Shown here piece by piece: positions 10,295-50,955 of a stretch of DNA of 51,215 nt; positions within the stretch are counted from its first letter, which is position 1, and each line of letters opens with the position of its first letter. A program made the position numbers and the translations under genes. Location of the stretch: the IMG/VR virus record IMGVR_UViG_3300032227_000383, positions 1-51,215 of that record; one strand, given 5' to 3'. Under the pieces are notes generated by a model that saw only the letters and a program-made list of their open reading frames with translations, had not been told where the DNA came from and did no database searches. Origin of the DNA: a virus. Taxonomy: Duplodnaviria; Caudoviricetes.

Positions 10295-10298
10295 GTGA

Positions 10299-11342: not shown

Positions 11343-11353
11343 GATGCTTCTCC

Positions 11354-12105: not shown

Positions 12106-12259
12106 TTTTAAGCTCCGGTAGTGATTTATATTTTTGTTTTCGATCAGCAGCGTGGAATTCTTTCCCTACACTGCTTGGGACGCCAACTTTTTTGGCAAAC
12201 TTGGGGTTGGCCGAAACGGCAGCCATAAACCTGAACTGACGTTTCGACCTGCTTGGCAT
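12071..12259 (-). CDS. Small basic phage protein
   Basis: MPS.SK.Q..FMAAV..NP.FAKKVGVP.SVG.EF..AD motif recalled from similar phages. Confidence 0.7.
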   Translation of the reverse strand: MPSRSKRQFRFMAAVSANPKFAKKVGVPSSVGKEFHAADRKQKYKSLPELKNVSRRTASPRT

Positions 12260-13158: not shown

Positions 13159-13160
13159 GA

Positions 13161-16960: not shown

Positions 16961-17014
16961 GCTGTTTCCTATCACGCCGCTGATGCGCGGTCAATTTCTA
17001 ACCTTTGAACTCTA

Positions 17015-17215
17015 TCAATCGCGCAGATCCATCATCGCATCTGCAAAGCAAAATGCGTCATAGGTCGTTAGCTCGACAAATTCGCTGTCAGCATCCATGC
17101 TGTGAGCGTTCAAACGCTTCGCAATAAGCGCTTGCATCGCAAAGGCCGCGAACCAATCGCGTGGGCGCATCAGATTTTCGTCTATAATTTCAAATTCCAT
17201 GTCGTCACTCCTCAA
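17015..17215 (-). CDS. Small phage protein (RDxFAxxAMQ family)
   Basis: RDWFAAFAMQA...A...ADAMM. Confidence 0.65.
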   Translation of the reverse strand: MRSDDMEFEIIDENLMRPRDWFAAFAMQALIAKRLNAHSMDADSEFVELTTYDAFCFADAMMDLRD

Positions 17216-18735: not shown

Positions 18736-19271
18736 TGCGCGTTCCGCCGCGCCGCAAATTCCAGCAGACTGGGCATCTCGATGACCTCAACCGGCTTCTC
18801 AATAACACGCGCAGGAACCGCATCATCCCCCGGCTGCGGCCCCTGCGCAACCAGCGCGCGCAATTCCTGAAGCGACAGGCCCTTGGCCCCCACCGTGTGG
18901 TTGATGTTAACCGTCTGGTCCATCATCCCCATCATAGCAGCCTGCGTCTTCAGTGCGTTTATCGCGCTGGCAAAATTGCTGACCGAAACCGCCCGGTCGT
19001 GGATCGCCTGCAACTCATCCAAAATCAAATCGCGACTATACTCCACCCGCTCAGGCTTCTGACCACTCTCCGCCGCCTCCGCAATCCGCCTCTGGATCTC
19101 CGGACGCGCCATCTGCCGGTCGGCAATCACCTTGATGGGATACTCAGGATTGATCAACCCTGCGCGCACGCACGCAACGTCAGAACGACCGCTGCGCACA
19201 TATTCGCGGACAAAAATCTCGTCCCGCTCAGTGCTGCCCTCGCCCTCAAAGTCGAATATGTCATCACTCAT
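18732..19271 (-). CDS. terS: Terminase small subunit
   Basis: FVREY......A...AG...; A..ALK...GM; directly upstream of terL with overlapping stop/start. Confidence 0.75.
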   Translation of the reverse strand: MSDDIFDFEGEGSTERDEIFVREYVRSGRSDVACVRAGLINPEYPIKVIADRQMARPEIQRRIAEAAESGQKPERVEYSRDLILDELQAIHDRAVSVSNFASAINALKTQAAMMGMMDQTVNINHTVGAKGLSLQELRALVAQGPQPGDDAVPARVIEKPVEVIEMPSLLEFAARRNAQ

Positions 19272-19297
19272 GATACACATACATAATCACACAAAAA

Positions 19298-33590: not shown

Positions 33591-34529
33591 ATGGCGCACA
33601 TACAAGTACGCGACGAGGCCCATTGGCATGAGCTTCGCGCAAAGCACATCGGCGGCAGCGACATCGCTGGCCTGTTCGGTCTATCGAGCTTCACCACCCG
33701 CTGGAAACTGTGGATGGAGAAGTCTGGACGCATGTCACCGGAGGACATCTCTGGCAACAAGTCCGTGCAGGCTGGGACATTCCTTGAAAGCGGCATCGCT
33801 GCATGGGCGGCACACCGCTGGAAGATGCCGGTCACCAAGGTCAGCGACTATTACACGGTCGATGACTGTCCGGGCATGGGGGCGTCGTTCGACTTTGTCA
33901 CTGAAGGCGGTCACCCTGTCGAGATCAAATGGTCATCGACGTTCGCGGATGGCTGGGAGTACGAAGGCGACGTGATCACTGACGCGCCGGAGAACTATAT
34001 CCTTCAGGTCCAGCACCAGTTGGCTTGCACGGATGCTGAGTATGGCTGGCTGGTCGCACTGCTGCGTGACGAGCCGCGCCGCATGAAGATCCCGCGCAAT
34101 GAGAACATCATCAATGCAATCAAGGCTGAGGTGCGCGCATTCTGGCAGAGCATTGAAGATGGCTTTGAGCCGGAGGTCGATTACTCTGCTGACGCTGAGG
34201 CCATCGGTCGCCTGATGGAGCAGACGCCGATCACTGACATCACCCTTGGTGGTGAGTATGAGCAGTTGTTCATCGACTATGTCAAAGCGTCTGAAGATGA
34301 GAAGGTGGCGAAATCCATCAAGGATTCGACCAAGGCTGAGATCCTTCTCGTTACAAGGGCCGAGATGCTGAAGCAGAACACATCTCAGGAGAAGGCGAAG
34401 GTTGCTTGCGGTGCGCGCAAGATGTCGATCAGCACGGTGAAGCCCAACTTTGGGACAACGATCACCGAGGAGATGGTTGGAGAGGTTATCAACACCCGCA
34501 AGGGATATCAGACAGTGAGGATTTCATGA
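33591..34529 (+). CDS. YqaJ-like viral recombinase exonuclease
   Basis: W...R...IGGSD.A...G; G..LE; ASFD; VEIK; Y..QVQHQL. Confidence 0.92.
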   Translation: MAHIQVRDEAHWHELRAKHIGGSDIAGLFGLSSFTTRWKLWMEKSGRMSPEDISGNKSVQAGTFLESGIAAWAAHRWKMPVTKVSDYYTVDDCPGMGASFDFVTEGGHPVEIKWSSTFADGWEYEGDVITDAPENYILQVQHQLACTDAEYGWLVALLRDEPRRMKIPRNENIINAIKAEVRAFWQSIEDGFEPEVDYSADAEAIGRLMEQTPITDITLGGEYEQLFIDYVKASEDEKVAKSIKDSTKAEILLVTRAEMLKQNTSQEKAKVACGARKMSISTVKPNFGTTITEEMVGEVINTRKGYQTVRIS

Positions 34530-34684
34530 CGGACACGGTCATCAGGGTGGACACCAAGAAGCTTGTGGAGTTGCGCGCAGCGTGCGCCAGCCATCCACTC
34601 AAGCCCACAATTAAGGCCGCGACAGAGCGCGGCATCAGCCTCGTTATTAAGGAGATAGAAGATGGAACAAGGAACGCCAAGTAA
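34526..34684 (+). CDS. Small protein, possibly ribbon-helix-helix
   Basis: MTDTVIRVD...; ATGA overlap. Confidence 0.45.
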   Translation: MTDTVIRVDTKKLVELRAACASHPLKPTIKAATERGISLVIKEIEDGTRNAK

Positions 34685-35732
34685 CCTTCCCGCCAAGCCG
34701 ATTGATCGGTTCAAGCAGGAGATCGCGCTGCGCAAGGAGTCTGTTATGAACAGGCTGCCGCAGCACTATAGCTGGGACCGCTATCAGGGTGTCGTTGAAG
34801 GCGCGGTCATGAACAACATGGACCTGCTGGAGTGCGACCGTAAGAGCCTGCTGCTGGCCTGCCTCGATGCGGCTGCACTGGGCCTCGATCTCAACAAGTC
34901 GATGGCTGAGGCTGACATCCTCAAGGTCTGGAACAACAAGACCAAGCGGTATGAGGCGCAGTTCCGTCCACGCTACAAGGGCCTGATGAAGTTGGCGCTG
35001 CAGACTGGCGAGGTTCTGAAGATCGAAAGCCGCATCGTGTACGAGAACGATGAGTTCGAGATCATCGAAGGCACCACCGGCAGCATCGTCCACAAGCGCA
35101 AGCTCAGTGGCCGCGGCAGCATGATCGGTGCGTATTGCGTATGGACCCTGCGTAATGGCGAGACGCAGTTCGAAGTGATGAGCAAGGAAGAAATCCACGC
35201 CATCCGCGACCGCTCCTCATCGAAGACCAAGGAAGGTAAGGTCGTTGGCCCTTGGGTCACTGACGAAGCCGAGATGTGGCGGAAGACTGTGGTGCGCCGC
35301 GCCACAAAGTATATGCCTATGTCGCCTGACGCAGCGCGCGCAGTCCACAAGGACAACGTGGCGGAGGGTGTGTTCGAAGCCGACGAGTATGACGGCGATA
35401 CGTTCGACATCACAGACTTCGAAGAGGTTCAGGTGGTGACAGAAGACGAGCCTGAGCCCGCCGCCGAGAAGGTGTCGACGCTTGAGGAGAAGCTTGCCAA
35501 GGTGCGCAGCGTCGAGCCAGCGCAGCACGTCGAGATCGAAGTCCTTGAGTGTGTTGAGGACGAAGACGGCATCCCTGACTGGGATATGTGGGGCGAGAGC
35601 GCCATCCGCATCGTGTCGGACCTCGACCCAGCCGTGCGCAAGCAATGGCGCAAAGTTCATGCATCCATGATGGATGAAGCCGAGCTGATGTCACCCAATG
35701 CGGTGAACAAGCTTTTGAAACTGTTCAACTAA
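34662..35732 (+). CDS. recT: RecT family single-strand annealing recombinase
   Basis: L.EC...SL......A.LGL; AQF...YKG...LA; VYEND.F; PW.TD..EM..KTV.RR..KY.P.S. Confidence 0.93.
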   Translation: MEQGTPSNLPAKPIDRFKQEIALRKESVMNRLPQHYSWDRYQGVVEGAVMNNMDLLECDRKSLLLACLDAAALGLDLNKSMAEADILKVWNNKTKRYEAQFRPRYKGLMKLALQTGEVLKIESRIVYENDEFEIIEGTTGSIVHKRKLSGRGSMIGAYCVWTLRNGETQFEVMSKEEIHAIRDRSSSKTKEGKVVGPWVTDEAEMWRKTVVRRATKYMPMSPDAARAVHKDNVAEGVFEADEYDGDTFDITDFEEVQVVTEDEPEPAAEKVSTLEEKLAKVRSVEPAQHVEIEVLECVEDEDGIPDWDMWGESAIRIVSDLDPAVRKQWRKVHASMMDEAELMSPNAVNKLLKLFN

Positions 35733-39000: not shown

Positions 39001-39065
39001 TCAACCTCATCCTGCTTGTCGAGGATGTTGTCAGTCATGTCGATTGAGCAGTTAGAGCCAATCAT
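36030..39065 (-). CDS. Large internal virion/ejection protein, PLxRFG-domain-like
   Basis: SYIPFMRSGD (degenerate PLxRFG); E..N....F..AYR.A; QFSQYP; hydrophobic segment; last gene of ejection cluster. Confidence 0.65.
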   Translation of the reverse strand: MIGSNCSIDMTDNILDKQDEVDDSLRNVDMVRNMGAIGSIVTTGTSLARKSKYFQRMHQATNDKVKMRNFLMAEHEDMLEEVNRLPQESKDRLNAVLEYLRLSETDVRDTGRSFSIKTRDIEQKGRDGITRSVMPALSTPGDVLSLTKAETVKLHEIRKYLDNRYTLNGKSMLAAVGYTGEYSADAITNEVEDEVFRNELLRLFDAIERKRLTSYIPFMRSGDTRIMVYGPDGTIESGAFVMLDSMNWAKDLVGPALASKIPDPNIDAKIKEIKEKFPAANGFKVVVTRREGDVDKRLTIDDLTNLDKLLNLMDARSGDMIKNYFDKTLGGMFDAETLERLSSGEATMLAKGFVSDLDKNVRSVLMEDLIVGFMKESRNIPGYDTNFTDKLLDYNRIVATTVSHRMYREEYSKAYDDLKRKVAEPERRYAEKWDEYVDSPENAIWRAMRTIGFFNSMWGSFSSSAVNAMSVWTVTAPQMTIMKASAGLDIYKTAVQVTAGFRGAVGYGLHVDPYAIPGISKDERDALILANKRGTVRAQMNPELMGVEAGMNMSKASALKKTAGRYFQYGASVVSVTEEMNKAAAFIVAYRYAKDRTALANWKKAFADNERAKTIMERGSDPFDVAEFMVETNTFMGGQIEKPPIMRGAGGVILQFSQYPLQLANLLYQNFAKQGARGRIAGMFTLTTMFTVSGLLFAIPFGDDAINIFEWLTEKIGGKKRDFRTETQQVLADYLGGGEEGRRDAETIMRGPFRSLLNLNIGERIGSTSMMPELGDPVSAIPALSGTVGKFKEYLDRKASGVQPIAANIALASPFVGKAVSDILKGMIQFPEEGYRTRYGTKLLDPKDISVGEQIMRAAGFQTADIARAVQAVQAGKEIATSTQNAERNVTLRLSKMLADAIRAEEAGNAKEGERIRAEFDKDLEMVVSNFQKEIESGNMEDAVKPPSSMALREAVILELHPEMRINNVGKLKRAAWIAAQRDILVEDDEDSLLPDEEEEEDESSPYPEQP

Positions 39066-42000
39066 CAGTCGCAGCCCCTGTTCTTTTTCTGGATGTCAGC
39101 ACGCTCATCCATGATCTTGTTATCAGGCTTTTGCGCCTCCGCAATCGCCTGCTTCATTTTGGCGACATCACCATCGATGAGGGTCCGGAAAACCCGCTCC
39201 GCCTGCCGCTCTGGGCTTAGGCTTTTTCCAGCCGCTTCGCTAGGTGTCCGATCTTCACCCCGTTTTGCAGGTCCGCGACCGCCTTGTCCAGAACCGCTGA
39301 GTACTGGTTGCCCGGTGCCTCCTGCTCCGCCAGCGCCGACATCGCCTTCAGCCTTCCGAGCGCGAACTCCTTTGGATGTCGACTCTGGAGAGCCGTCTTT
39401 AAAACGGTTGCCGCGATATTCGATGCTAATGTTTGGGTTTTTGCCATTGAAAAGCTCCACGCCTGCCTTGATGATGTCGCTATAGTCTGCCGCTATCGTG
39501 TCTGCAAAATTATCTTCAAACTGCTGAAATGGAAATACCTTGTCGGACTTCATCTTCAGTAGAATGCGTTGCATTTCCGCAGGGAAGCGATGATCATGGC
39601 TGCGTACTTTGTGGTGCGCAAGCTCATGGATCATGGTTCCAAACAGGCCATAGCCCGCTTCGAAGGGTCCGTCAAACTCAGGGACAAGCGGATTTACAAA
39701 GCTGCCGCCAAACGGAATAGTGATGGACACGCCCCGATATTCCGGATCCATCGAGATGCCAACAGCCTCATTGAGAAGGTCGGGATAATTCATGACGCGC
39801 GACACTTCCTGACGAAGCTTCATGAACGTGCCGCCAACATAATTCATATATTCATCAAAGCGTTCACCAAACTTATCCCGCATAAATTCTGAGATGTATG
39901 GCGGGGTCTTGTTGTTGCCGCCAACGGTGACGACACTGGTGTTGTCATGAACCATAACGGCATCGAAGTTGATCATGCTAGGATCAACCTTGAGTTCCGA
40001 AGCGCTAGGAATTCCAGACTTTAGCTGATCCGGCGTGAGTTCAGGCATCAGCTTTCCGTTGACAAGGAGATCCCCATCAGCATTAAGCGTTATCTCATCG
40101 CCCTCAGAAATCCTCGTAAAGGCCGTGTCCTGAGCCGGAATGTCTGGCGTCAGGTCAATGACAGGGCCAAGCTTTCCATCCGCGCCAAAATACTGGATGC
40201 TGCCAAAGCTCGTCGCTTCCCCGGCCCTGCTCTTGTAGGCATAGATCGCATCTATGTAGTCCTTCACCTTCCTGAAGTCGGCCTTACCTTCTTCTGTGAA
40301 GCCCTGACGGTTAAAATCAAATGGGTATCCGTACTCGTCAGGCTTTACCGATGGGACAATGTCCACGTAAAATGTGTACGGCACTGGGTTTCCGTACACT
40401 TTGCTTGGATCAGTTTGAACAATAGTGGAGAACTGCCACAGCCCGTTTGATAGGATGTGCATGTTGTCGCCATATTTTTGGCCGGTCTGGTTCCTCGTTA
40501 CGTAGACCTTCGCGGTGCCCCAAGGGAACTTGACGCCAACAAACTGGGTGTAATCCTGAATTGGGAAGTTAGACCCAATTTCAACAGTATCCGGAAGATC
40601 CTTGTAATGCTCATCGACAAAAGTAACATCGATGTTTGCGAACAATGGGCTGCGCACCAACGGCGTGGCCGAATGAACGTAGCCGGGAAGCGGCTTGATA
40701 TCAAACGTCCTGCCCTTTTCCTTGATCGTTTCATGCAGAGTTAGCTGGATGACGGTGCCATGACCATTTGGAAACAGGTCGCTGTCGGTTGCCTGAATTT
40801 CACGGACATTGATATAAGGCGCGTTCTCAGGGTTTCCGAGGGAGCTGAAGAGCCGATCGCCAGTGACCTCAAGCTCAGCAACCTTTCCGTCGCGTGCGGT
40901 GATAACCCGGACATTCTTATTGGCGTAAAGGAACAACATCTTGGCAATGCCAAAGCCGCCGGCGTTCTTCTCACCCTCTTTGGCAGTACCTGCAATCTCA
41001 AGAAACTTGCCGCCAAGAATTCCGGGCGTCATGCCGGTCCCGTTATCTTTAACCGTCAGGGTGCGGCCATCGGTCGACACCGACACCTCGATCTTGCCCT
41101 GCTCGATCTGGCCGTCGTTTATTGCAGACCGAGTTGCGTCAAATGAGTTCTGTAGAACTTCCTTGATGCAGGTCTGGCCCATGTTTGTTGGGTCGCCATA
41201 AATCTGCCAGCCAACCATATTCGCCATGCGCTCGACATTCATGCCGGGCGTCGAGCGAATGGTTTCATACTGCGCATCGTATGGCGTGATCTGATCAATG
41301 ATGTCCTTCTTCGGGGTCTGATCGTACTGGGCCTTCGCCAAGCTAAAGACTTTCTCAGCGGCGGTCTCTCCCGGCTGACGATCAATCGTCTCCTTCAAGG
41401 TTGCGGCATCCTCAGCCTGAGCTGGCTTTATCTGATACAACTCTGGCTGCTGAACCCCCTCACCGGCATCAACCCGCTTCCAAATGTCCCGCGCAGATGG
41501 CGTCTCCGCCTTGCCAAACATGTCAGGCTCAGCCTGCTGATTGGCCGCAATATCAGTATAGCTTTGGAGCTTCTCAGCGATAGCCTTCTTGCTGAGCATA
41601 CGGGTCAGATTGTCGTTGTGGAAAGCCATAAGGATTTCTTTAACAAACGGATCCATTGGCGTGATCATGTCTTCGCTGCGCAACGCACCTGAGACGCTGT
41701 TGCCACTGGTCTTGATGTCAGACACAGTGCCAACCGTTTCCATCAACTTGCCAGTGATGTCGTACTTTTTGTCAACCTCTCCATTCTTGACAGCCTGCTG
41801 GAACTTGATCCAGTCCTTTGCGACATCAACCAGAGCGTTGGTCAGCGTCTTGGTGTCATCGTCGCTGCGCTCCATCGCCTTGCTGATGAAGATGTTAGAC
41901 GCCCGACCAGCCTGACCATACGCCTTGTACAACAGCGCGTTCTCAATGCGCTTAAGAGCCTGAGAGCTGATGTTGCCCTTGTCGTCCATTGCGTTTTCGC

Positions 42001-44737
42001 GCTGCTGCGGGCTCATCTCCGCAAGGAAGGCAGACACGAAGGCGTCGTTCTTTGCAGCCTTCAGATCACCGCCGTTGTACTTTGCCAGAACCGCAGGCTT
42101 GAGGATGTCCTGCGCGTCCTGCGCAGCCTGCTCCGGCGGAGACAGGGCCGCGATGTCTGCCTCGTTGGAGCCAGTGACGAACTCACGTTCATCGACGTCA
42201 GACAGGAGGCGCCGGGCCAAAAAGGGGCGTTCGATGCCCTCGATGTTCCAGCCGTTATCCCGTAGGAACTGGCGATACTTCTCAGCCTGTTCTGGGTACT
42301 TCTCGTAAATCTCTTCAAGGCCCATCGTGCGGCCATTGCCACTGAGGATCACGTTGTCCTTGTTGATAATCGGCGCACCGCGATCTGTTGACCTGTCCTC
42401 GCCCAGACCTTCCGGATCAAACTCACTGGTGAACCGGCGCAAGAACTGCTGCGTCTGCGGGCGACTGCGATCACGGTTCTGAAGCTCACCCTCAGCGAAC
42501 TTCACGTCAGCCAGATCGAGAAGCTCATCCTGAACCTCGACCTTGTTGCGGGTCGCCGGGATAGTGACGGTGGCTTTGTTGCCGACAGCGCGAGGCGCGG
42601 CGGGCGCAGGTGCAGGCGGTAGCGGCTGGATCGTGAATTTTTCTTTTGGTTTCTCCGGCGTCTTGAAGCGCGCATCGTCAAACGCAGTAGCTGCCTTAAA
42701 CATGTCCTCCTTTGAAACGCTCTGCGCGCCGCGTGCGGCTGCGATCTTACGGGCATCGTTCTCAATCTGGCTCTTCTGAGCAGATGTGCGAAACCTGTCA
42801 TACTCCTGCATGTAGGGCCCGACATCTTCGTCGATGGGCATCTGCTCTGGCGGCGCGATGGATTCGGCGGGCGGTGCAGGTGCTGGTGCGACCTCGACCC
42901 CATAGCGCTGCTGAAGCCCAGAGATATGGCTATTGTCATATTGGGACATCGAATTGTCGATCTCACCAATTTTATAACGGCGGTCAGCCTCATCAATCAG
43001 CGCGTAGGCCTCATAATCCCCGCTCTCATTCTTGGGAATGCCAGCCTCTTCAAGGGCCATGACCTCCGGTTGAGAGAGTGAACCAGCAGGAATGAGTCCC
43101 CCCGGCTGCTCACGCGCGGCCATTAGAAGTTGCTGGGGAAGCGTTTGAACTGTCATTGGCGCAGGTGCAAACGACGAGATCGGCTTACCTGCGGGCTCTT
43201 CGACCTCAGCCGTGAAGCTTGAGATTGGCTTACCTTTGGGCTCAGGCGCAGGCGCTGAAGCAGAAGGCGCAGCATCTTCATCTAGTTCATCACTAAATTT
43301 AAATACCTTGCGTCCGTTTTCTATGCGAAATCCGCCGCCACTAGCGGGCGCAGGCTCAGGCTGCGATACTGGCTTGTTTTCCGCCTCCGCCTTCAACCTC
43401 AGTGCCTCTTCACGGAGTTCGTTCAGCTTCGCTTCTTCAGCATCTAGACGCGCATTAAAATCGACTTCCCTTGCATCGACCTTGGCTGCCAATGCAGCGG
43501 CTTCATCTGCCACAGGCTCGCCAAACGCAACGCCCGGAACAAACGGTTCAGTCGGCACAACTGCGCCAACGTCGATGGCGGCATTGATTTCAGCCGGGTC
43601 TTCGGCGAACATCGAGCCATCTTCAGCCTCGATGATGACGCGACCACCCTCATCCATGCCGCGATAGATGTACTCGTTGGCACCGCCGGGTTCGTTGAGG
43701 ATAATCTTGGATCCGACCTCACCCAGCTTCTGAGCAAAGTCAGCGGGCGGTGGTGGTGGGGGCGCCTGTTCAGCAGCGCGCTTTGCGGCGGGCGCTTCCT
43801 CTGTAGGCTCCTGTGCGCCTGTGATGCGCTTGGCAATGGCCCCAGCGCCAGCCAGAGCGCCGCCTGTGAGCAGCGTCGAGCCAGCCGTCTCCACCATCTG
43901 CATGGGGAGTTCATTGACGTAATCACCCCACGTCTTGTCTGGGTTCGCAATGGCAGTGTCGATTGCGCCTTGCGTGATCGTGGCGATTTCCTCACCGATC
44001 AGCTCACGACCAAGAAATTCCTTGAGGAATTTGCCAAAGCCAACCTTGCCAAGCTGCTTGACGACCACACCAAGGGGAAGCATCTCTGTCGCAATTTCGG
44101 TAACGGTTTCTGCCGTAGCCCCGGTAAGCGCCTCCTGCGGAGCCCCGCCACGCTCTTCATACCGCTGGTATGCCTCAGGAAATGTAATCGCGCCGATGTT
44201 GGCCACGGCTGGAATTGGGTTTCCGGTGGCCACTGATGCAATAATGCCCGGCGCATTCTGAGCCAAAGAACTTGCAGCGATATACGCCATACGACCAACA
44301 GGGCTTTCAATGTTCGGTGCGGCAGCTTCAGCCCTCGCCCGCGCACTAAGAGCGGCCTGCTTTTCAGGTGTGCGTGCAGCGACTGCACCAAAGCGCTCTG
44401 CGCGTGCGGCGCGCTCTGCACGATCAGGCCCATAAATATCAGGGAAGACGGCGTCTATGGCTGCGCCGACGCCCTTTTTCCCTGTAGCAAACTCAGCAAT
44501 ATCGCCCGCAGAAATATCTTGAACGGTCGCCAGAAACGCAGAAGGGGCGGCAGCTAAATCCGCACCAATTCCCTTGATGGCATTCCATATCGTGCTTTCA
44601 GGCTGCTTCGGCGCACTGATAGTATCCGGCTTGCGATTGGGGATAATCTCCCGCTCAATGGTAAGCTGGATCTGATACGGGGTCATGTCATCCGGAAACT
44701 GGATGTTACCCTTACCCGGAACAAATACGACTGGCAT
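39065..44737 (-). CDS. Polyvalent virion/ejection protein: DdrB-like ParB, GHKL ATPase and zincin-like metallopeptidase modules
   Basis: LQNRDRSR...GAPII.....LSGNGR (ParB-like); KEVLQNSFDA, DNGTGM, GGFGIAK, GTVI (GHKL boxes); HELAHH. Confidence 0.8.
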   Translation of the reverse strand: MPVVFVPGKGNIQFPDDMTPYQIQLTIEREIIPNRKPDTISAPKQPESTIWNAIKGIGADLAAAPSAFLATVQDISAGDIAEFATGKKGVGAAIDAVFPDIYGPDRAERAARAERFGAVAARTPEKQAALSARARAEAAAPNIESPVGRMAYIAASSLAQNAPGIIASVATGNPIPAVANIGAITFPEAYQRYEERGGAPQEALTGATAETVTEIATEMLPLGVVVKQLGKVGFGKFLKEFLGRELIGEEIATITQGAIDTAIANPDKTWGDYVNELPMQMVETAGSTLLTGGALAGAGAIAKRITGAQEPTEEAPAAKRAAEQAPPPPPPADFAQKLGEVGSKIILNEPGGANEYIYRGMDEGGRVIIEAEDGSMFAEDPAEINAAIDVGAVVPTEPFVPGVAFGEPVADEAAALAAKVDAREVDFNARLDAEEAKLNELREEALRLKAEAENKPVSQPEPAPASGGGFRIENGRKVFKFSDELDEDAAPSASAPAPEPKGKPISSFTAEVEEPAGKPISSFAPAPMTVQTLPQQLLMAAREQPGGLIPAGSLSQPEVMALEEAGIPKNESGDYEAYALIDEADRRYKIGEIDNSMSQYDNSHISGLQQRYGVEVAPAPAPPAESIAPPEQMPIDEDVGPYMQEYDRFRTSAQKSQIENDARKIAAARGAQSVSKEDMFKAATAFDDARFKTPEKPKEKFTIQPLPPAPAPAAPRAVGNKATVTIPATRNKVEVQDELLDLADVKFAEGELQNRDRSRPQTQQFLRRFTSEFDPEGLGEDRSTDRGAPIINKDNVILSGNGRTMGLEEIYEKYPEQAEKYRQFLRDNGWNIEGIERPFLARRLLSDVDEREFVTGSNEADIAALSPPEQAAQDAQDILKPAVLAKYNGGDLKAAKNDAFVSAFLAEMSPQQRENAMDDKGNISSQALKRIENALLYKAYGQAGRASNIFISKAMERSDDDTKTLTNALVDVAKDWIKFQQAVKNGEVDKKYDITGKLMETVGTVSDIKTSGNSVSGALRSEDMITPMDPFVKEILMAFHNDNLTRMLSKKAIAEKLQSYTDIAANQQAEPDMFGKAETPSARDIWKRVDAGEGVQQPELYQIKPAQAEDAATLKETIDRQPGETAAEKVFSLAKAQYDQTPKKDIIDQITPYDAQYETIRSTPGMNVERMANMVGWQIYGDPTNMGQTCIKEVLQNSFDATRSAINDGQIEQGKIEVSVSTDGRTLTVKDNGTGMTPGILGGKFLEIAGTAKEGEKNAGGFGIAKMLFLYANKNVRVITARDGKVAELEVTGDRLFSSLGNPENAPYINVREIQATDSDLFPNGHGTVIQLTLHETIKEKGRTFDIKPLPGYVHSATPLVRSPLFANIDVTFVDEHYKDLPDTVEIGSNFPIQDYTQFVGVKFPWGTAKVYVTRNQTGQKYGDNMHILSNGLWQFSTIVQTDPSKVYGNPVPYTFYVDIVPSVKPDEYGYPFDFNRQGFTEEGKADFRKVKDYIDAIYAYKSRAGEATSFGSIQYFGADGKLGPVIDLTPDIPAQDTAFTRISEGDEITLNADGDLLVNGKLMPELTPDQLKSGIPSASELKVDPSMINFDAVMVHDNTSVVTVGGNNKTPPYISEFMRDKFGERFDEYMNYVGGTFMKLRQEVSRVMNYPDLLNEAVGISMDPEYRGVSITIPFGGSFVNPLVPEFDGPFEAGYGLFGTMIHELAHHKVRSHDHRFPAEMQRILLKMKSDKVFPFQQFEDNFADTIAADYSDIIKAGVELFNGKNPNISIEYRGNRFKDGSPESTSKGVRARKAEGDVGAGGAGGTGQPVLSGSGQGGRGPAKRGEDRTPSEAAGKSLSPERQAERVFRTLIDGDVAKMKQAIAEAQKPDNKIMDERADIQKKNRGCD

Positions 44738-44752: not shown

Positions 44753-46045
44753 CTACCTTACGGGCTGCAGCCCCTTACCGGGAACGTATTGCATAGTTGC
44801 CTGCGGAGCGCCACCCCCGGTCGGGGCAGCAGCTTGCCCGCCGGGCAGGCCCATAGACGCCTTCACCCATGCAATTTCCATCCTGACTTTCTTTAGGGCA
44901 GCGCGGGCCTCATCTTTTTGAGCCTTGGGCGTAAGTGGGTCGTTGATCGTGCGCTGGTAAACGCCTTCCTGCCTTATCAGCCCATTCAGTGTGCCCGTGG
45001 CGCCCTTCGCGCCCATACCCCCGCCGCCCCCGCCGCCCCCACCGCCGCTACTGCGGAGGTTCGGATCAGTGCGGCGATCCTTGTCTGCCGCCGCACGGTA
45101 AGCTTCAGCCGCCGCCTCGTCCTTTGCAATCGAAGCCAACGTAACCTTAGGCACCAAATTCGCGGCCTCAACACGCGATTCAGCCGTCTTGCCAGAGATG
45201 GTGTCTGCACGCGCGGCTTCCAGCATTTGCAGGTCTTGCAGGGCAGCCCTGTCACCGCCGCGATATGCATCCAGCGCCTGAGCCCGTGCCGCATCAATTG
45301 CCTTAATCCGCGCAAGCTTTACGTTCTCTGACTGATCCTTCAGCAGGGATTGCTCTTCATCCATCTTGGCCTTGCGCGCATCATACCCCTTGACGCCAGC
45401 CTCCATGCCGGAAGCCAGAGCCTGCATAAAATACGGGCTGTTGCTCTGAGCCATTTTGAAGCCAGCTTCAGCAAGTGCCTTCCACTTCGAACTCTTGCGC
45501 TCCTTCTGAAGCTCAGCAAGCCTCTCACCGGCACGGCTTTCACGGCCAGCAAAGATCTGCTCTTCTTCGGGGCGAATTTGCGCGGCCTGCGTTACGTCAG
45601 CCTCAGCCTGAGCGCGCGCAGCCTTGGCCTTGAGCAGGTTATACGCAGCCACCTGATCAACGGTGGCATTCTCACCCGGCGCAGCCATAGCCTCAAGCTT
45701 CTGCCGTTGCTGACGAGCAAGGAGTAGATAGGGATTTTCGTACTGCTGCGGCGGAGGTGGCGCCTTGATTTCAACGCCCTCCTTCTCCGGCGCGCGCGAA
45801 CCGGGCGTGACAACTACCGGCGGAGGCGCGGTCGCTGGGCCTAACAGCTGCGCGACTTGAGTGGGCGTGGCAGCATTAAAGACGCCGCCGACCCCTTCCG
45901 GCTGAGGATTCGCCGTCTGCCCCGGACCCGCCGGTAGCATGATGTTTTGGACCAACTGCTCAAGGGAAACGCCCGGAGCCTGACCCTGACGCTTCATCTC
46001 AACTGCAAGGCGCATTGCGTCGCTACGACTAATCCGATTGGCCAT
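44753..46045 (-). CDS. Putative DNA ejection (internal virion) protein
   Basis: Ala-rich helical; AL..AG..M...SP.F..AL..G motif; cluster position. Confidence 0.6.
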   Translation of the reverse strand: MANRISRSDAMRLAVEMKRQGQAPGVSLEQLVQNIMLPAGPGQTANPQPEGVGGVFNAATPTQVAQLLGPATAPPPVVVTPGSRAPEKEGVEIKAPPPPQQYENPYLLLARQQRQKLEAMAAPGENATVDQVAAYNLLKAKAARAQAEADVTQAAQIRPEEEQIFAGRESRAGERLAELQKERKSSKWKALAEAGFKMAQSNSPYFMQALASGMEAGVKGYDARKAKMDEEQSLLKDQSENVKLARIKAIDAARAQALDAYRGGDRAALQDLQMLEAARADTISGKTAESRVEAANLVPKVTLASIAKDEAAAEAYRAAADKDRRTDPNLRSSGGGGGGGGGGMGAKGATGTLNGLIRQEGVYQRTINDPLTPKAQKDEARAALKKVRMEIAWVKASMGLPGGQAAAPTGGGAPQATMQYVPGKGLQPVR

Positions 46046-46962
46046 TATTTCACATCCTTCAGCCAGCCGATGCCCATCTTCGGGACACGCTTTTTAATGG
46101 GGCCACCGTCTTTCTTACCAGTAAAGATATCAGCAATCGTACCAGCCGCACCAGCCAGAGCGCCAATCGTCTGGGCTGTCGTGTTCGGGCCGGGGGCGGT
46201 TTGAGTCTTGGTGCCAGCTCCGCTAGCGCTTGGCTGCCCAACAAGGTCGATGTATTTCTTTGCCTCGTTGTAATCATAATCGCGCTGATCTTCGAAGTCC
46301 GACCGTAGCAGACTAAGTGCAGCCTGCTCTTGCAACTGCCGCTGACGCCCAGCCGCTTCAAGCGCCGCCGCATCCTTACCAGCCATGCCCTGAATGCTTG
46401 CGCCAAGCGCTGCGGCCTTGTCTGCAGCCGATAGATAGCGATCAGCTTCGGTGTTGAACTGCCCCATGCCCTTTTCGTAACCCTCACGCAGGGCCTTGTT
46501 CTGTTCAGCAAGCGCCAGCGCATTCGCATCGCGCACCGCACGCGCCGTGAACTCAGCGCTGCGGCTGCCGCCAAACGTACCGCCGCCAACGAAGGTGCGG
46601 TTCACCTGAGGCAGCAGGTTCTCATAGAGATTGCGACCCGCTGCGGATCCAATCCCAGACACGACGTTTTCCGTGTACGGGTTCATGTACTGAGCCACGA
46701 CGCCGGGATCGGTGAAAGATTCGGTTCCACTGGAAATATAATTCCCGGCAGCATTGACGTAGGGCTTATAGTTCCCGACGTTCTTGGAAACCATTTCGTA
46801 AGCTTGAAGCTGCTGCGGCGTGAAAGCGGCAATGCGCGGGCCAGCGGTGTACTTCTTATAGCCCTGACCGACGGATTCACCGGCCTTAGTGAGAGCCTTG
46901 GTATAGGCGTCAACAAGCCACTGAGGGAGACTAGTCTCTGTGACGGTTTTTGTGTCTGCCAT
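46045..46962 (-). CDS. Putative DNA pilot/ejection protein
   Basis: Y..GPRIA.F...Q; YMNPY...V; FGGSR; IGALAGAAG hydrophobic tail. Confidence 0.7.
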   Translation of the reverse strand: MADTKTVTETSLPQWLVDAYTKALTKAGESVGQGYKKYTAGPRIAAFTPQQLQAYEMVSKNVGNYKPYVNAAGNYISSGTESFTDPGVVAQYMNPYTENVVSGIGSAAGRNLYENLLPQVNRTFVGGGTFGGSRSAEFTARAVRDANALALAEQNKALREGYEKGMGQFNTEADRYLSAADKAAALGASIQGMAGKDAAALEAAGRQRQLQEQAALSLLRSDFEDQRDYDYNEAKKYIDLVGQPSASGAGTKTQTAPGPNTTAQTIGALAGAAGTIADIFTGKKDGGPIKKRVPKMGIGWLKDVK

Positions 46963-49115
46963 TACGCTTGCCCTCCAACGGCTTTAAGCATTGTATCTAT
47001 GCCCTTCTGGGGCTTTGCAATCTTTTTTACATCCTTGCGGCCTGCCTGCCGACGAACCATCTGACGCATCTTATCTAGGCGGCGAACCCCCTCATCGGTC
47101 GAGCCATCGCCCAGATCGGCAACATCCTGCGCGCTCCAGACGTATTCGCCATCTGAGAGCCATGCCGGAATAAGATCTTCCTGACCGCTGCCAATGCCCG
47201 TTACCTTGCCCGGACCTTGGTGACCACCGCCTTTCCGATACTCGACAAGATGCTTTACCATGTCATCGTTGATTTCACCACCTTCTTTCCGTCCGGGCGC
47301 GGCGGCTGGGGTGGTAACAGGAGCTGCGACAGGATTGGCCCGCGAACGGGTGAAGAATTCGTACTCAGTCTCTTGATCGCCGCCAGCAATACCATAGGTT
47401 GTCGGCGTGTATGGATAGCGACCGCCGACTCCATCAACGGCGCCAATGCCACCGTCCGGGATTGTTGGGGTCAGCACATTTGGGTTGAGTGTGAGGCCGG
47501 GGCCGCTGTTACCGCCACCGCTACTGCCGCCATCGCTGCCGGAGCCAGCAACTGCGCCTGCAACTGCGGCCACGGCACCAACAATCTTGGACGCATCCTT
47601 GGCAATGTCGAGGATTGATTTGTCGTCCTTATCAGCCTCTTCTTCTGCGACCTCCCGCTGGAAGTCATCGCTGTTAATGAGATCACCGACATCCGTCATA
47701 TTGGTTGAGAGGGGCCCGCCGCCAATGCCAGCCGTGTCCTCGCCGCCCTCAACGACAATCTCATCCACAGCGGTGTCAGCACCAGTGTCGACGTTGGTGT
47801 TCGTGTTTGTGTTTAAAGGAATATCTGGTCCACCAATGCCAGCTATATTTTCAGTGCCCTCAACAACGATATTATCCACAGCGGTATCGGTGTTGGTATC
47901 GACGTTGGCGTTCGTGTCGGTGCTGATGGGGGTGGTGCCACCAATGCCAGCCATATTGCCAGTGCCCTCAACAACGATATTATCCACAGCGGTATCGGCT
48001 TCCGCATCATCAGCAGGCACATCCTGAACTTCAGGAATGTCGTTAACCTCAAGAGAAAGAGGGTCTAGATTGGAGAGTCCCGGAACCGTAATGAGCCCCC
48101 CAATGCCCGGCGTCGACCCGGCGGTAACCACAATTTCGCCAGCGGAATCCGTGGCTGAAGACCTTGGAGGAGTGTTCGAGGTCGGGCCGGAGAAGCCAAT
48201 GCCGGGGGTGACATTGCCGGTGACCACAATTTCGCCACCGCCACCGCCACCGCCACCGCCACCGCCGCTGCTGCTGCCGCTGCTAATTCCGCCATCGCCC
48301 TTGAGTAGGTCTTTAATTTCAGGTGCAAGCGCCGTGGTAACTCCAGATATCACGCCAGACTTGATTGCATCTCCAAGATCCTGACCCGTCAAAAGCCCGG
48401 CTGTTGTTGAGCTAAGGCCTGCGCCAAGCGCCTTGCCGACCGTTGCTGAGGCCGTGTTTAGACCCTTGTTAATTATAGGGCCAAGCTTATCAGCGCCGAG
48501 AACTGGGGCTGCCGCCATGACGCCAGCTTTAATTGCATCCTCAAGGCTGCCGCCCTGAGCGATGGTAAAAGCAGCGGCGGTGCCGCCCGCTGCGGCCATC
48601 TGGGCTGGCAGTGACCACCCTCCCGTGGCCGCAGCAACGCCGATCTGCGCGGCGACACTGAGAACTTGAAGCCCAATTTGAGCGGTGGTCAGGTTTACCT
48701 TCTCATGGGCAACGGAATTAAACCCTGCATTTCCGCCATATTGCTCAATACCCGGCGTGTTAACCATGATATCCCATGTCGCCTTATTCCCGCCCGTGTC
48801 CGACAGGCCCTGAGCAACCTCATTCGCCTTTGCGGCGGCGTCATATCCGATGCCTGAATAAACAACCTTACCCGTCGCGTTGTCGACAACGATGACGGCG
48901 CTATCCGGAGTGACTTCGTAGATGTTGTTCCTATTGAGCGTGGACGTCGCATTGCCCTTATTCGATAGCGGGGCTGTGAACGACCGCGTCTCGCCGCCAT
49001 AAACACCAGCGCCACTGACGGGGCCAACACTTCCAATGCCAGCCAAGTTTAGATTGGACGGATTGAACGCATAAAGAGAGGCGAGGTCTGCGTCAGAAAT
49101 TCCTGCAATCGCCAC
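46962..49115 (-). CDS. Putative DNA pilot/ejection protein with TM-like Gly/Ala segments and IVV repeats
   Basis: C-terminal G.G.G..D.IPA.LSDGEYV..A..V..LG.GS...G...L domain; five IVV-GIG repeats. Confidence 0.7.
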   Translation of the reverse strand: MAIAGISDADLASLYAFNPSNLNLAGIGSVGPVSGAGVYGGETRSFTAPLSNKGNATSTLNRNNIYEVTPDSAVIVVDNATGKVVYSGIGYDAAAKANEVAQGLSDTGGNKATWDIMVNTPGIEQYGGNAGFNSVAHEKVNLTTAQIGLQVLSVAAQIGVAAATGGWSLPAQMAAAGGTAAAFTIAQGGSLEDAIKAGVMAAAPVLGADKLGPIINKGLNTASATVGKALGAGLSSTTAGLLTGQDLGDAIKSGVISGVTTALAPEIKDLLKGDGGISSGSSSGGGGGGGGGGGEIVVTGNVTPGIGFSGPTSNTPPRSSATDSAGEIVVTAGSTPGIGGLITVPGLSNLDPLSLEVNDIPEVQDVPADDAEADTAVDNIVVEGTGNMAGIGGTTPISTDTNANVDTNTDTAVDNIVVEGTENIAGIGGPDIPLNTNTNTNVDTGADTAVDEIVVEGGEDTAGIGGGPLSTNMTDVGDLINSDDFQREVAEEEADKDDKSILDIAKDASKIVGAVAAVAGAVAGSGSDGGSSGGGNSGPGLTLNPNVLTPTIPDGGIGAVDGVGGRYPYTPTTYGIAGGDQETEYEFFTRSRANPVAAPVTTPAAAPGRKEGGEINDDMVKHLVEYRKGGGHQGPGKVTGIGSGQEDLIPAWLSDGEYVWSAQDVADLGDGSTDEGVRRLDKMRQMVRRQAGRKDVKKIAKPQKGIDTMLKAVGGQA
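47720..48233 (-). repeat. Five [DEN]IVV[TE][GA]-x4-GIG repeats; two are a near-exact DNA duplication 108 nt apart
   Basis: EIVVTG 48216-48233, EIVVTA 48120-48137, NIVVEG 47964-47981 and 47856-47873, EIVVEG 47745-47762. Confidence 0.9.
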
Positions 49116-49117
49116 GT

Positions 49118-49354
49118 CTATTCCCCTTGACTCAAAGCTTCATTGAACAGCATGACCCACTCACGCCAATCATCAAACATATACGTACTGGGCGCTCCGG
49201 TCTGAGCTATCCCGTTAAGCGCCAATATCCCAGATCCCCAGATTTTCCAATCGTCTCCGGGCATGAACTGCGTAATAACGCCATATTGCTCCAGCAAAGG
49301 GTAGCTGAAGTCTGCCCAGAGGTCGAACGTGGGTATGCCGTGTGGATCAATCAT
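49118..49354 (-). CDS. Small Trp-rich virion protein
   Basis: DP......WA...W..W.....P..Y.FDDW.EW motif; follows tail hub gene. Confidence 0.65.
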   Translation of the reverse strand: MIDPHGIPTFDLWADFSYPLLEQYGVITQFMPGDDWKIWGSGILALNGIAQTGAPSTYMFDDWREWVMLFNEALSQGE

Positions 49355-50955
49355 GACTGGTAACGACGATCTGTCGACTCAATGTGCGCGATAACATCAC
49401 CCATCTGATAGTTCCCACCAACCGTGTTGCTGACAAATTTAAAGCGCAGTTCGCGGCGCTGCTCCTTGAAGAACACCTGTTGCTCTTCCGGTGTGTTGGC
49501 CACAGCCGGGAAGAAGCGAACCTCTGAATTAACCTCAGGCGCGCGGGCGTTGATACGGCCCGTGATCTGCACGGACATGTCGCCGGTCTGCACGAAGTCG
49601 GGCTCAATCATACTGATGCGGATCGCGGCATTGTTTGGCGTCTCTGCGGTAAGGTTGCTGACGTCGCCTGTTTCGAAATAGCTCTCGATTGCGTTGATTG
49701 ACGTGCCATCAATTTCATCGCTGCCAACTTCATGGCGCCAGATTTTATAGCCGTTGTAGCCAGTGTCGGTGATGCGCTGGTTATCATCCTCTGTGATGCG
49801 GAGGTCACTAGCCTCCGTTATGCGAGGCGAGCCATCAATCGGCAGCACTGGTAGGATGCCAGCCATGACGGGAGAATGAAACACCTGCGCATAAATGCCG
49901 GCTGAGCGACCGTCGTTGGGAAGCTCAGTATCGTACCATGTGTTTTCCCGGACGTTGTAAACCACCGCGTGCGTGCATTCCGTTGCCGAGCCGCGTGGAT
50001 AGCACCACCAGATCTCGCCGTAGCGCGGAACCTTGTATGCAAATACCTTGTTCGACTGCTCCTCATTGAGGCCGTCAAAAAAGTAATTGATGTTCAGATC
50101 GTTTGGAACCTCACGCACGACGCCGTTGTACATCAGGAAGCGGTCAATGCCGCACCAGTAATAGATGCCGTCATACTCGATGACGCTGTTGGCAGAGAGG
50201 ATCGATGAGGACGAGCTGATCGTGTCGAACGAGAAGACGTCCGTGCCGCCTGTGTAACTTGCACGGATGATGCTATCGAGCGTCCAGAACAGGCCAGCAG
50301 GCGTCTGACCACCGCCGCGCAGAGGCAGGCCCTTCACCACCTTGGACGCTGAGATGAACGCATCACCCGCATCGCCAGTCGTGAAGTTGGTTGGGTCGTT
50401 GGCGTCAGACCATTTGACGAGGCCGTTCGTGCCAAAGGCAAACAGGTAAGGATGCAGCACGCAGACGCCACCTGATACTGTCAGGCCTGAGATGGCCGTG
50501 AGAGCAGTCGTCGCGTAAATGTTCCCGATGTAGACCTGCTTTGCATCCGCGTTCGAAATGTCGTTTGCCGTATTGGTGGCAACGCCAATGATCACTGAGC
50601 CCCCGCCAGCGCCATCGTTCATGGCATCGAACGACCACATGTAATTGTCGCCACCGGAATACCCGGATGGGGTGCGGACCACTGGCGCGCTGGCATTGCC
50701 GAGCGAGTCAATCGTCATCGTCTGAAGTCCGTCGCCATAGCCCATGTGGGTGTACACGAAGTTGTTCAGGGCCTGCGTGTGGAACTGGCGAACGACACCC
50801 AAGGCGAAGTTGCTGATCTGACGATAGCCACCCATCTTCCTTGGCAGGCCACGCTGAAAACGGCACCACTGACCATCAACGTAGTTCGCGCCTTCGAACT
50901 TCGTGCCATCCCGCTTGATGCCGGGCTTAGACCTTATGTTGATGGGGGTGAGCAT
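49351..50955 (-). CDS. Tail hub/nozzle protein (P22 gp10 / tail tubular B-like)
   Basis: PGI.RDGT; Y.DG.W.RF.RG.P.KMGG; KWSD; YW.G.D.F..Y.G.V; EIWW.YP.G...EC...V.YN..E..W. Confidence 0.75.
   Translation of the reverse strand: MLTPINIRSKPGIKRDGTKFEGANYVDGQWCRFQRGLPRKMGGYRQISNFALGVVRQFHTQALNNFVYTHMGYGDGLQTMTIDSLGNASAPVVRTPSGYSGGDNYMWSFDAMNDGAGGGSVIIGVATNTANDISNADAKQVYIGNIYATTALTAISGLTVSGGVCVLHPYLFAFGTNGLVKWSDANDPTNFTTGDAGDAFISASKVVKGLPLRGGGQTPAGLFWTLDSIIRASYTGGTDVFSFDTISSSSSILSANSVIEYDGIYYWCGIDRFLMYNGVVREVPNDLNINYFFDGLNEEQSNKVFAYKVPRYGEIWWCYPRGSATECTHAVVYNVRENTWYDTELPNDGRSAGIYAQVFHSPVMAGILPVLPIDGSPRITEASDLRITEDDNQRITDTGYNGYKIWRHEVGSDEIDGTSINAIESYFETGDVSNLTAETPNNAAIRISMIEPDFVQTGDMSVQITGRINARAPEVNSEVRFFPAVANTPEEQQVFFKEQRRELRFKFVSNTVGGNYQMGDVIAHIESTDRRYQS

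Follow-up and report, generated by a model that had tools for sequence, protein, structure and literature searches.

A candidate phage tape-measure/ejection-type protein carries an array of TonB-box-like motifs in a predicted disordered region

A 717-aa phage protein of the tape-measure/ejection type carries five copies of the short peptide that bacterial outer-membrane transporters use to dock onto the TonB energy motor. They lie in a middle region without predicted structure, which suggests that the phage borrows that motor during cell entry. We found no description of such an array in print. The gene lies in a metagenomic virus contig (IMG/VR record IMGVR_UViG_3300032227_000383), of which we analyzed positions 1 to 51,215, hereafter the window. 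No tRNA and no TonB gene were found in it. The features discussed below are as follows.

46962..49115, minus strand: ORF of 717 aa, candidate tape-measure/ejection-type virion protein
48705..48986, minus strand: N-terminal alpha/beta domain, aa 44-137
48303..48686, minus strand: Gly/Ala-rich hydrophobic helices, aa 144-271
47685..48317, minus strand: predicted disordered acidic middle region, aa 267-477, holding the motif array
48216..48236, minus strand: TonB-box-like heptad 1, aa 294-300, GEIVVTG, after a Gly run
48120..48140, minus strand: TonB-box-like heptad 2, aa 326-332, GEIVVTA
47964..47984, minus strand: TonB-box-like heptad 3, aa 378-384, DNIVVEG
47856..47876, minus strand: TonB-box-like heptad 4, aa 414-420, DNIVVEG
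47745..47765, minus strand: TonB-box-like heptad 5, aa 451-457, DEIVVEG
47745..47999, no strand assigned: 108-nt tandem repeat that makes copies 3-5
47550..47615, minus strand: second hydrophobic Gly/Ala/Val helix, aa 501-522
46965..47288, minus strand: conserved C-terminal module, aa 610-717 (G-x-G-x-G-x-x-D-x-I-P-A-x-L-S-D-G-E-Y-V ... L-G-D-G-S), shared with tape measure proteins
46045..46962, minus strand: downstream overlapping gene, 305 aa, phrog_4287 'DNA ejection protein' (E 2.3e-15), homologue of gp065 of Caulobacter phage RLK
49118..49354, minus strand: upstream 78-aa ORF, same size and position as RLK gp067
49351..50955, minus strand: upstream gene, 534 aa, phrog_3287 'virion structural protein' (E 5.5e-38)

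The array had first been noticed in a sequence-only reading, and that observation is confirmed. The ORF starts with a GTG codon that abuts the stop of the upstream 78-aa ORF. Its five heptads fit [DG][EN]IVV[TE][GA], each with GIG downstream. Two details are corrected here. GIG had been placed four residues after every heptad, but it follows after 4 residues in copies 1-2 and after 5 residues in copies 3-5. A 108-nt-spaced duplication had been attributed to two copies, but Tandem Repeats Finder gives a period of 108 nt, 2.3 copies, and 79% matches at 47745-47999, and the duplication therefore covers copies 3-5. In copies 3 and 4, only 3 of 20 codons differ across the motif-plus-GIGG part (aa 374-393 against 410-429), while the tails are fully diverged. 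Copy 5 differs from copy 3 in the conserved part by four synonymous changes and one amino-acid change, which indicates selection on the motif, while the linkers diverge freely.

The middle of the protein (aa 272-472) is acidic and rich in Gly, Thr, Val, and Asp, with a pI of 4.1, 29 D+E, and 2 K+R. AlphaFold2 leaves aa 267-477 at a pLDDT of about 33 with no secondary structure, a prediction only, and we therefore rejected the reading of the array as a self-contained repeat fold. The Gly/Ala-rich hydrophobic stretches noted previously are real: Kyte-Doolittle peaks start at aa 142-151 and 504-511. Predicted helices are confined to aa 144-271 and 475-522, and the long alpha-helical rod typical of tape measures is thus absent from the model. 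The N-terminal domain has a pLDDT above 90 in the full-length model and of 70-85 when folded alone (mean pLDDT 69). Searches for a related fold or a solved relative gave nothing informative. A profile search against PDB sequences had a best E of 0.18. VIA-align against 48,161 chains gave a best Z of 6.5, with only weak likeness of the hydrophobic helices to membrane helix hairpins. Foldseek against the PDB found no hit at E<=0.001 with the full model and a best E of 0.19 with the N-terminal domain. In BFVD, only uncharacterized phage proteins were retrieved, five at E<=0.001. A search of the ESM Atlas with aa 1-290 gave a best score of 0.88, below the threshold for a lead. No Pfam family matched at E<=0.01, and in the absence of receptor-binding or cytotoxic domains we rejected the possibility of a bacteriocin-like toxin.

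The protein belongs to a large metagenomic family, with 399 relatives at E<=0.001 and 2626 at E<=0.001 among 50%-identity representatives. Loss of the motif among homologues had been proposed beforehand as grounds for rejecting the idea, but the motif is conserved family-wide. The strict form [DENQGST][DENQT][IV][IVT]V[TSE][AG] occurs in 111 of 244 homologues, with 206 copies in all, whereas 200 composition-preserving shuffles gave a mean of 2.2 and a maximum of 9. These counts over homologues are not phylogenetically independent. The logo is [EDG][ED]-I-V-V-T-[GA] with Pro/Ala/Thr/Glu-rich flanks, and 80% of the copies lie at 0.36-0.65 of the protein length. Among the 116 representatives of 50%-identity clusters of at least 450 aa, 59 have the strict form, 90 a relaxed form, and 64 two or more relaxed copies. 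The motif occurs in both deep subfamilies, in 38 of 83 and 17 of 26 members. Of 106 instances, 99 have distinct 10-mers, and the motif is therefore not one inherited copy. Copy number varies from 0 to 6 among close and distant relatives. Close relatives have 5, 5, and 2 strict copies, the last with 3 further variant copies. The motif is also specific to this gene. In 106 related loci, we counted 47 hits in 76,518 aa of the homologous ORFs, against 8 in 999,079 aa of all other six-frame segments of at least 100 aa, an approximately 77-fold higher density.

Conservation is nevertheless not universal. The strict motif is lacking in 133 of 244 homologues, many of which carry variants. Among those inspected, some have only looser forms such as QEILVKA, TIVEAT, or PIVSTA. 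Phage DSL-LC04 has a different five- to six-fold repeat, and the homologue of the cyanophage Pag-Yong1 has no repeat.

As an independent yardstick, we read 25 TonB boxes upstream of 28 Plug domains in a Caulobacter sp. MAG that also has an exbB-exbD-tonB operon. This MAG was used as a stand-in, not as the host. These boxes show T-x-V-[ED]-x-[IVL]-[IV]-V-T-[AG], with T at position 5 in 19 of 25 and a G:A ratio of 12:13. In the phage family, T is found in 165 of 206 copies and the G:A ratio is 108:98. A 7-mer matrix built only from the transporter boxes ranks the five copies first in the protein (15.9, 15.7, 14.0, 8.0, and 8.0 bits; next best 5.8), heptads 1 and 2 scoring 15.7 and 15.9 bits, respectively. 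It finds 284 hits of at least 10 bits in the family against 15.6 expected, in 147 of 244 proteins. With a 10-mer matrix made from real TonB boxes, a six-frame scan of the whole window gives only three hits above 12 bits, and these are copies 3, 4, and 5 (12.9, 12.9, and 19.4 bits, the last being the best hit in the window). A position not used to define the motif agrees: R/K two residues after T-[AG] occurs in 43 of 99 distinct instances against a 5% background (p 1.7e-29), and in 16 of 25 transporter boxes. However, the window's own copies lack this R/K, and copies 3-5 have E where most TonB boxes have T, as does only 1 of the 25 transporter boxes. A complex prediction pairing the C-terminal domain of the MAG's TonB (aa 140-240) with aa 312-347 of the phage protein gave a score of 0.02 against a mark of 0.32, in a run without controls, and counts neither for nor against binding.

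Assignment to expelled virion proteins is supported only indirectly, by kinship and gene order, and presence in virions is inferred from family names and gene order alone. The C-terminal module matches phrog_5448 (E 4.5e-4), the same module in relatives matches 10 families named tape measure, and it lies in the annotated tape measure protein of phage Faja. Only the last 80-110 residues or so are shared. The gene is embedded in the structural block, among overlapping genes between phrog_3287 and phrog_4287, and the gene order is the same in Caulobacter phage RLK. No tail tube, sheath, or tubular-protein family was recognized in the window, and even the tail type is therefore inferred from kinship. 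Cultured relatives infect Caulobacter vibrioides (Caulobacter phages such as RLK, or RW, first described in PMC9391073). The only cultured relative (RLK) has one near-canonical box, DEIVVTP, ending in P and not in A/G.

Searches for a host of this phage were negative. A first scan of genome contigs found nothing. A second found 29 loci, 27 of them MAG contigs from many phyla, probably binned phage contigs, and 2 Streptomyces genomes matching over only 39 residues. Among cultured relatives identified by portal similarity, Pelagibacter phage HTVC023P, Roseobacter phage CRP-901, and the Alcaligenes phage have no detectable homologue of this protein, and therefore say nothing about hosts with or without TonB. 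The host-linked set is too small for a correlation: the only positive is one species of Caulobacter phage, with a near-strict box, and the negatives are Arthrobacter phage Faja, a Streptomyces ORF, DSL-LC04, Pag-Yong1, and MW202545.

We propose that the gene encodes a virion protein of the tape-measure/ejection kind that leaves the particle ahead of the DNA, and that its acidic linker of roughly 200 residues carries mimics of the TonB box, the beta-strand peptide by which TonB-dependent transporters dock onto the periplasmic domain of TonB. In this view, once the unfolded linker reaches the periplasm, host TonB would capture a box by strand addition, and the ExbB-ExbD motor, driven by the proton-motive force, would pull on it. 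Boxes spaced 32-52 residues apart would allow repeated capture, helping to draw the protein, and with it the channel-forming segments and perhaps the DNA end, out of the virion and towards the inner membrane. We consider a TonB-box mimic array in an expelled virion protein about as likely as not. The analysis establishes the motif, its predicted disordered context, its family-wide conservation and variation in copy number, its specificity to this gene, and its match to real TonB boxes, while presence in virions, entry into the periplasm, TonB binding, pulling, and dependence on TonB, ExbB, ExbD, and the proton-motive force are inferred. The sequence-only reading, which had suggested that a virion protein engages TonB-ExbBD repeatedly like a ratchet to power its own translocation and genome entry, is thus partly supported.

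A bolder version, which we hold only tentatively and consider rather unlikely, is that this phage family uses the TonB-ExbB-ExbD motor as a winch acting directly on a viral protein, converting proton-motive force into stepwise extraction of that protein, and of the DNA end behind it, across the periplasm. The middle of the protein would then be a swappable adaptor cassette. Most lineages would carry TonB-box mimics tuned to their hosts' transporter consensus, whereas other lineages carry different repeats, such as the five- to six-fold repeat of DSL-LC04, or a Cys-rich insert, which could address other host machines. The box sequence could then serve as a host predictor for uncultured phages.

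How tailed phages pay for moving proteins and DNA across the periplasm is largely open. A TonB box carried by the phage's own expelled protein, in multiple copies and conserved across hundreds of environmental phages, would be a new way for a virus to tap a host motor, extending to viruses the parasitism of TonB by bacteriocins. It would explain one class of energy-dependent entry, predict a resistance route through tonB or exbBD mutations, and offer a sequence feature for host assignment.

The best-surviving alternative, possible but less likely, is that the repeats are beta-strand motifs for a partner other than TonB: another phage protein (portal, tail channel, or a neighboring ejection protein), other copies of the protein itself in an intermolecular sheet or tube in the periplasm, or another periplasmic host protein that binds by strand addition. 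The likeness to TonB boxes would then reflect what any exposed edge-strand peptide looks like, and beta-branched I-V-V-T has high strand propensity. In the window's lineage, the conserved unit is indeed longer than a TonB box, D-T-A-V-D-x-I-V-V-E-G plus A-G-I-G-G about five residues later, and could be a small hairpin with another partner; a TonB box does not need GIGG. Across the family, GIG follows within 12 residues in only 35 of 206 copies. GIGG, GIGS, and AGIG are the commonest 4-mers outside the C-terminal 200 residues (155, 126, and 115 of 244 proteins). As other lineages put unrelated repeats in the same place, the middle may simply be a variable assembly or spacer module. However, a generic strand motif does not predict the acidic pair before the strand, T-[AG] after it at the same roughly 1:1 G:A ratio as in transporters, or R/K two residues further on. 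The motif is flanked by Pro-rich, non-conserved linkers rather than by a repeating fold, and AlphaFold2 builds no structure from the array, though this is weak evidence.

It is unlikely that the boxes bind TonB for another purpose, as a decoy shutting off transporter-dependent uptake or excluding other TonB-dependent phages and bacteriocins, or in competition with the receptor's own box while a TonB-dependent transporter is used as the entry port. Multivalent boxes would compete well with transporter boxes of the same consensus, infection by phages T1 and phi80 depends on TonB through the receptor FhuA (PMC11658791), and TonB-box peptides were designed against TonB as an antibiotic target (PMC9841981). 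Yet, if only a few molecules per virion are delivered, they could hardly titrate cellular TonB, the gene sits in the structural and ejection block and not among early genes, and no receptor is known. Equally unlikely is a duplication-prone, low-complexity spacer setting the length or flexibility of the protein and carrying the motif along by descent and repeat expansion: copies 3-5 did arise by tandem duplication, copy number and linker length vary widely, and some relatives do without the motif, but the heptad is kept while everything around it changes, its flanks lack a consensus, it recurs in two subfamilies only about 30% identical overall, synonymous changes outnumber amino-acid changes within it, and it far exceeds the number expected from composition.

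Compared with known systems, the heptads share with the transporter TonB boxes the consensus [ED]-x-[IVL]-[IV]-V-T-[AG] and an extended, unstructured context. Heptad 2 is identical to the box of the transporter on one locus (L049), copies 3-5 share the upstream T-x-V-[ED], and across the family the downstream R/K is shared. They differ in being five internal copies instead of one, not at the N-terminus of a plug domain and with no barrel following, in the E of copies 3-5, and in the GIGG that follows in this lineage. In the translocation regions of TonB-dependent bacteriocins, group B colicins and pyocin S2, a foreign protein likewise carries its own TonB box in or next to an acidic disordered region and uses it to be pulled inward. 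The box of pyocin S2 engages TonB, and its acidic disordered N-terminus (pI 3.67) enters the pore first (PMC10994204). A preprint reports colicin B carrying single-stranded DNA through FepA (10.1101/2021.05.11.443673). Those proteins have one box near the N-terminus plus receptor-binding and killing domains, whereas the array here is internal and multi-copy, and its carrier is a phage structural-module protein.

With tape measure proteins of long-tailed phages and ejection proteins of short-tailed phages, which form a trans-periplasmic conduit (PMC8402733; PMC8954989), our protein shares the C-terminal module of families named tape measure, hydrophobic segments, and a neighbor of a 'DNA ejection protein' family. 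It has no long coiled coil, about 30% of it is predicted to be disordered, no solved ejection protein or tape measure matched by sequence or fold, and the two Gram-positive relatives examined (Faja and the Streptomyces ORF) have 0 strict motifs. In phages T1 and phi80, entry is also coupled to TonB and the proton-motive force, but TonB is understood to act on the receptor FhuA, and a TonB box on a phage protein is not mentioned in the text consulted (PMC11658791). The g3p of filamentous phages, a virion protein that binds TolA, similarly engages a periplasm-spanning host system linked to the proton-motive force (Tol) during entry, but through a folded domain rather than an array of short linear motifs, with a different host system and in a different type of virus.

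The 51,215-base virus record, which derives from a metagenome, was judged 93% complete and harbors no tRNA gene. On its minus strand, positions 46962-49115 correspond to an ORF of 717 aa, whose GTG start abuts the stop of a 78-aa ORF and whose stop overlaps the start of the next gene. The observation made in the sequence-only reading holds, as the five motifs that it named are present in this protein. That reading had placed a GIG four residues after every copy; we found this spacing in copies 1-2, whereas in copies 3-5 GIG follows after five residues. It had also described two copies as a duplication with a spacing of 108 nt. The tandem repeat has indeed a period of 108 nt, but it includes copies 3, 4, and 5. 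The features of this region are as follows:
aa 294, copy 1, GEIVVTG.
aa 326, copy 2, GEIVVTA.
aa 378, copy 3, DNIVVEG.
aa 414, copy 4, DNIVVEG.
aa 451, copy 5, DEIVVEG.
47745-47999, tandem repeat of period 108 nt, with 2.3 copies and 79% matches, to which copies 3-5 belong.
48237-48269 (minus strand), run of 11 glycines directly preceding heptad 1, corresponding to a perfect CGCCAC hexamer repeat on the plus strand (48233-48266).
Within the tandem repeat, the part formed by the motif and GIGG is kept: 3 of 20 codons differ between copies 3 and 4, and four synonymous changes and one amino-acid change separate copies 3 and 5. Conversely, the tails have diverged completely.

According to the AlphaFold2 model, obtained with a 38-row alignment, the protein is predicted to comprise a confident alpha/beta domain (aa 44-137), helices (aa 144-271), a region without any structure (aa 267-477, pLDDT about 33), further helices (aa 475-522), and a moderately confident C-terminal module (about aa 650-692). 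The middle region is acidic, with a pI of 4.1 and 29 D+E against 2 K+R, and hydropathy peaks start at aa 142-151 and 504-511. No Pfam family was found, the only PHROGs hit was a weak match of aa 618-692 to a family named tape measure, and no solved structure matched by sequence or by fold.

The gene lies in a run of overlapping minus-strand genes, given here in the direction of transcription:
A 534-aa protein of phrog_3287, 'virion structural protein'.
49118-49354, a 78-aa ORF without family match.
46962-49115, the 717-aa protein carrying the motifs.
A 305-aa protein of phrog_4287, 'DNA ejection protein'.
44753-46045, a 430-aa protein, which also has a run of 11 glycines.
39065-44737, an 1890-aa protein combining a ddrB-like ParB domain (aa 731-844), a GHKL ATPase domain (aa 1188-1293), and an H-E-L-A-H-H zinc-protease-like motif near the C-terminal third, which looks like a large multi-enzyme virion protein.
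A 1011-aa protein.
Genes for the terminase, the portal, a major head protein, and tail-fibre-like proteins lie on the same strand at positions 1-19,280; on a circular map, the block would therefore follow the tail-fibre genes. The head module also contains a match to a GroES-like co-chaperonin (11354-11821, minus strand; phrog_3188, E 7.4e-7), and the replication module a RecE-like exonuclease and RecT-like annealing protein pair (33591-34529 and 34662-35732, plus strand). The portal is 31-41% identical to those of Pelagibacter phages HTVC023P/027P, Roseobacter phages CRP-901/902, phage DSL-LC04, and four Caulobacter phages. The HTVC023P type has been assigned to the Podoviridae (PMC9599517). 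Three cultured portal relatives have no detectable homolog of the 717-aa protein.

Caulobacter phage RLK shows the same gene order, with proteins of 510, 78, 580, 333, and 435 aa. The 78-aa ORF directly upstream of the gene is conserved in size and position with RLK gp067, and the RLK homolog, gp066c, carries DEIVVTP and two looser copies. RLK and its three near-identical sisters infect Caulobacter vibrioides (PMC11053796). The C-terminal module (46965-47288, minus strand; G-x-G-x-x-D-x-I-P-A-x-L-S-D-G-E-Y-V ... L-G-D-G-S) is also found near the end of the annotated tape measure protein of Arthrobacter phage Faja, and in a Streptomyces ORF (locus L030, 7973-10333, plus strand) it matches 10 PHROG families named tape measure. 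It is a widespread, unnamed module of tape measure proteins in phages of both Gram-negative and Gram-positive hosts and has no Pfam family. We therefore consider the protein as one of the tape-measure/ejection kind, although the likeness covers only the last 80-110 residues and its presence in virions is inferred.

A word-index search identified 399 relatives of this protein, and an exhaustive search 2626 at E<=0.001 and 103 at E<=1e-30. Among 244 of these relatives, the window's own protein being left out, the strict pattern [DENQGST][DENQT][IV][IVT]V[TSE][AG] occurs in 111, with 206 copies in all: 56 proteins have one copy, 29 two, 16 three, 7 four, 2 five, and 1 six. In comparison, two hundred shuffles gave a mean of 2.2 and a maximum of 9. 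The logo is [EDG][ED]-I-V-V-T-[GA], in Pro/Ala/Thr/Glu-rich flanks without consensus. When only the 150 listed representatives of 50%-identity clusters were considered, 64 had the strict pattern and 100 a relaxed one. Among the 116 representatives of at least 450 aa, 59 have the strict form and 90 the relaxed form, with 64 carrying two or more relaxed copies. The motif is carried by both deep subfamilies (38 of 83 and 17 of 26), and 99 of the 106 instances are distinct 10-mers. Of 109 related loci, 106 have a recognizable homologous ORF; the pattern occurs 47 times in the 76,518 aa of these ORFs and 8 times in the 999,079 aa of every other six-frame segment of at least 100 aa.

Homologs without the strict pattern often carry variants, such as four copies of QEILVKARP, four or five of R-T-I-V-E-A-T, and E-D-I-I-A-T-A-Q-R-D, whereas some carry nothing comparable. 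Besides variants resembling the transporter sequence just after the box (I-I-A-T-A-Q-R-D), two close homologs (proteins P0006 and P0009) carry in their middle region a second repeat, N-F-L-P-D-L-T-S-T-A-Q-R-D, in two or three copies. The homolog of phage DSL-LC04 (OR003939.1, about 43170-44690, minus strand) has, at the place of the TonB-box-like array, a different repeat of about 17 residues (Y-A-G-M-D-L-S-S-A-Q-G-T-L-G-G-P-S) in five to six copies. The middle of the family therefore looks like a swappable repeat cassette. A cyanophage homolog is short and has no repeat, and a spring-water phage has a Cys-rich middle; together with the DSL-LC04 homolog, these relatives speak against, or limit, the reading as a TonB-box mimic. 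The homolog in MW202545.1 (locus L155, 1968-3887, plus strand) has a Cys-rich middle region and two tandem copies of the C-terminal D-G-[DE]-Y-V ... L-G-[DG]-G module. The two Gram-positive relatives examined have no strict motif, which fits the hypothesis of a TonB-box mimic, but two are far too few.

To compare the motif with genuine TonB boxes, we used a Caulobacter sp. MAG that holds a distant homolog on one contig and has an exbB-exbD-tonB operon and 28 Plug-domain hits. The MAG labels of related contigs span many phyla and probably reflect the binning of phage contigs. Upstream of 25 of these Plug domains, at a distance of 10-20 residues, lies T-x-V-[ED]-x-[IVL]-[IV]-V-T-[AG]. T follows the strand in 19 of 25 boxes, and G:A is 12:13; in the phage family, these figures are 165 of 206 and 108:98. 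A 7-position matrix derived from these boxes ranks the five copies first in the protein and finds 284 hits of at least 10 bits in the family against 15.6 expected, in 147 of 244 proteins. A 10-position matrix gives only three hits above 12 bits in all six frames of the window, namely copies 3-5. One position played no part in the definition of the pattern: R/K two residues after T-[AG] is found in 43 of 99 distinct phage instances, against a 5% background, and in 16 of 25 transporters. However, copies 3-5 have E for T, and the conserved unit of this lineage includes GIGG after the strand. The latter feature has no counterpart in TonB boxes and is not general in the family, as GIG follows within 12 residues in 35 of 206 copies.

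The best-supported reading is a TonB-box mimic array in a disordered, acidic linker of a protein that would be expelled from the virion. In this view, TonB would capture a box by strand addition in the periplasm, and the ExbB-ExbD motor would pull; the multiple boxes, which are 32-52 residues apart here and about 30-60 in relatives, would allow repeated capture. The interpretation in the sequence-only reading, a virion protein engaging the host TonB-ExbBD repeatedly, like a ratchet, to power its own translocation and genome entry, is partly supported. Our analysis establishes the motif, its conservation in the family, and its likeness to transporter boxes, within a region predicted to be disordered, whereas the expulsion of the protein, its arrival in the periplasm, the binding to TonB, and the pulling are inferred. 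Among the alternatives, the repeats might be a strand motif for another partner or for self-assembly; they might also act as a TonB decoy rather than as a handle. The array might finally be a functionless spacer.

Literature searches on TonB boxes in phage virion proteins and on Caulobacter phages and TonB returned no description of a TonB box in a phage virion protein, although an earlier description cannot be excluded, as only open-access papers and bioRxiv, without supplements, were covered. The papers returned that mention the TonB box, phage, and tape measure together concern FhuA and phage T5, and a 2024 review treats the TonB dependence of T1 and phi80 through the receptor (PMC11658791). 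The nearest worked-out precedent is pyocin S2, whose own TonB box engages TonB after its acidic, disordered N-terminus enters the opened transporter (PMC10994204). TonB-box parasitism is known from bacteriocins; what differs here is the multi-copy form of the putative box and its location in a phage structural protein family.
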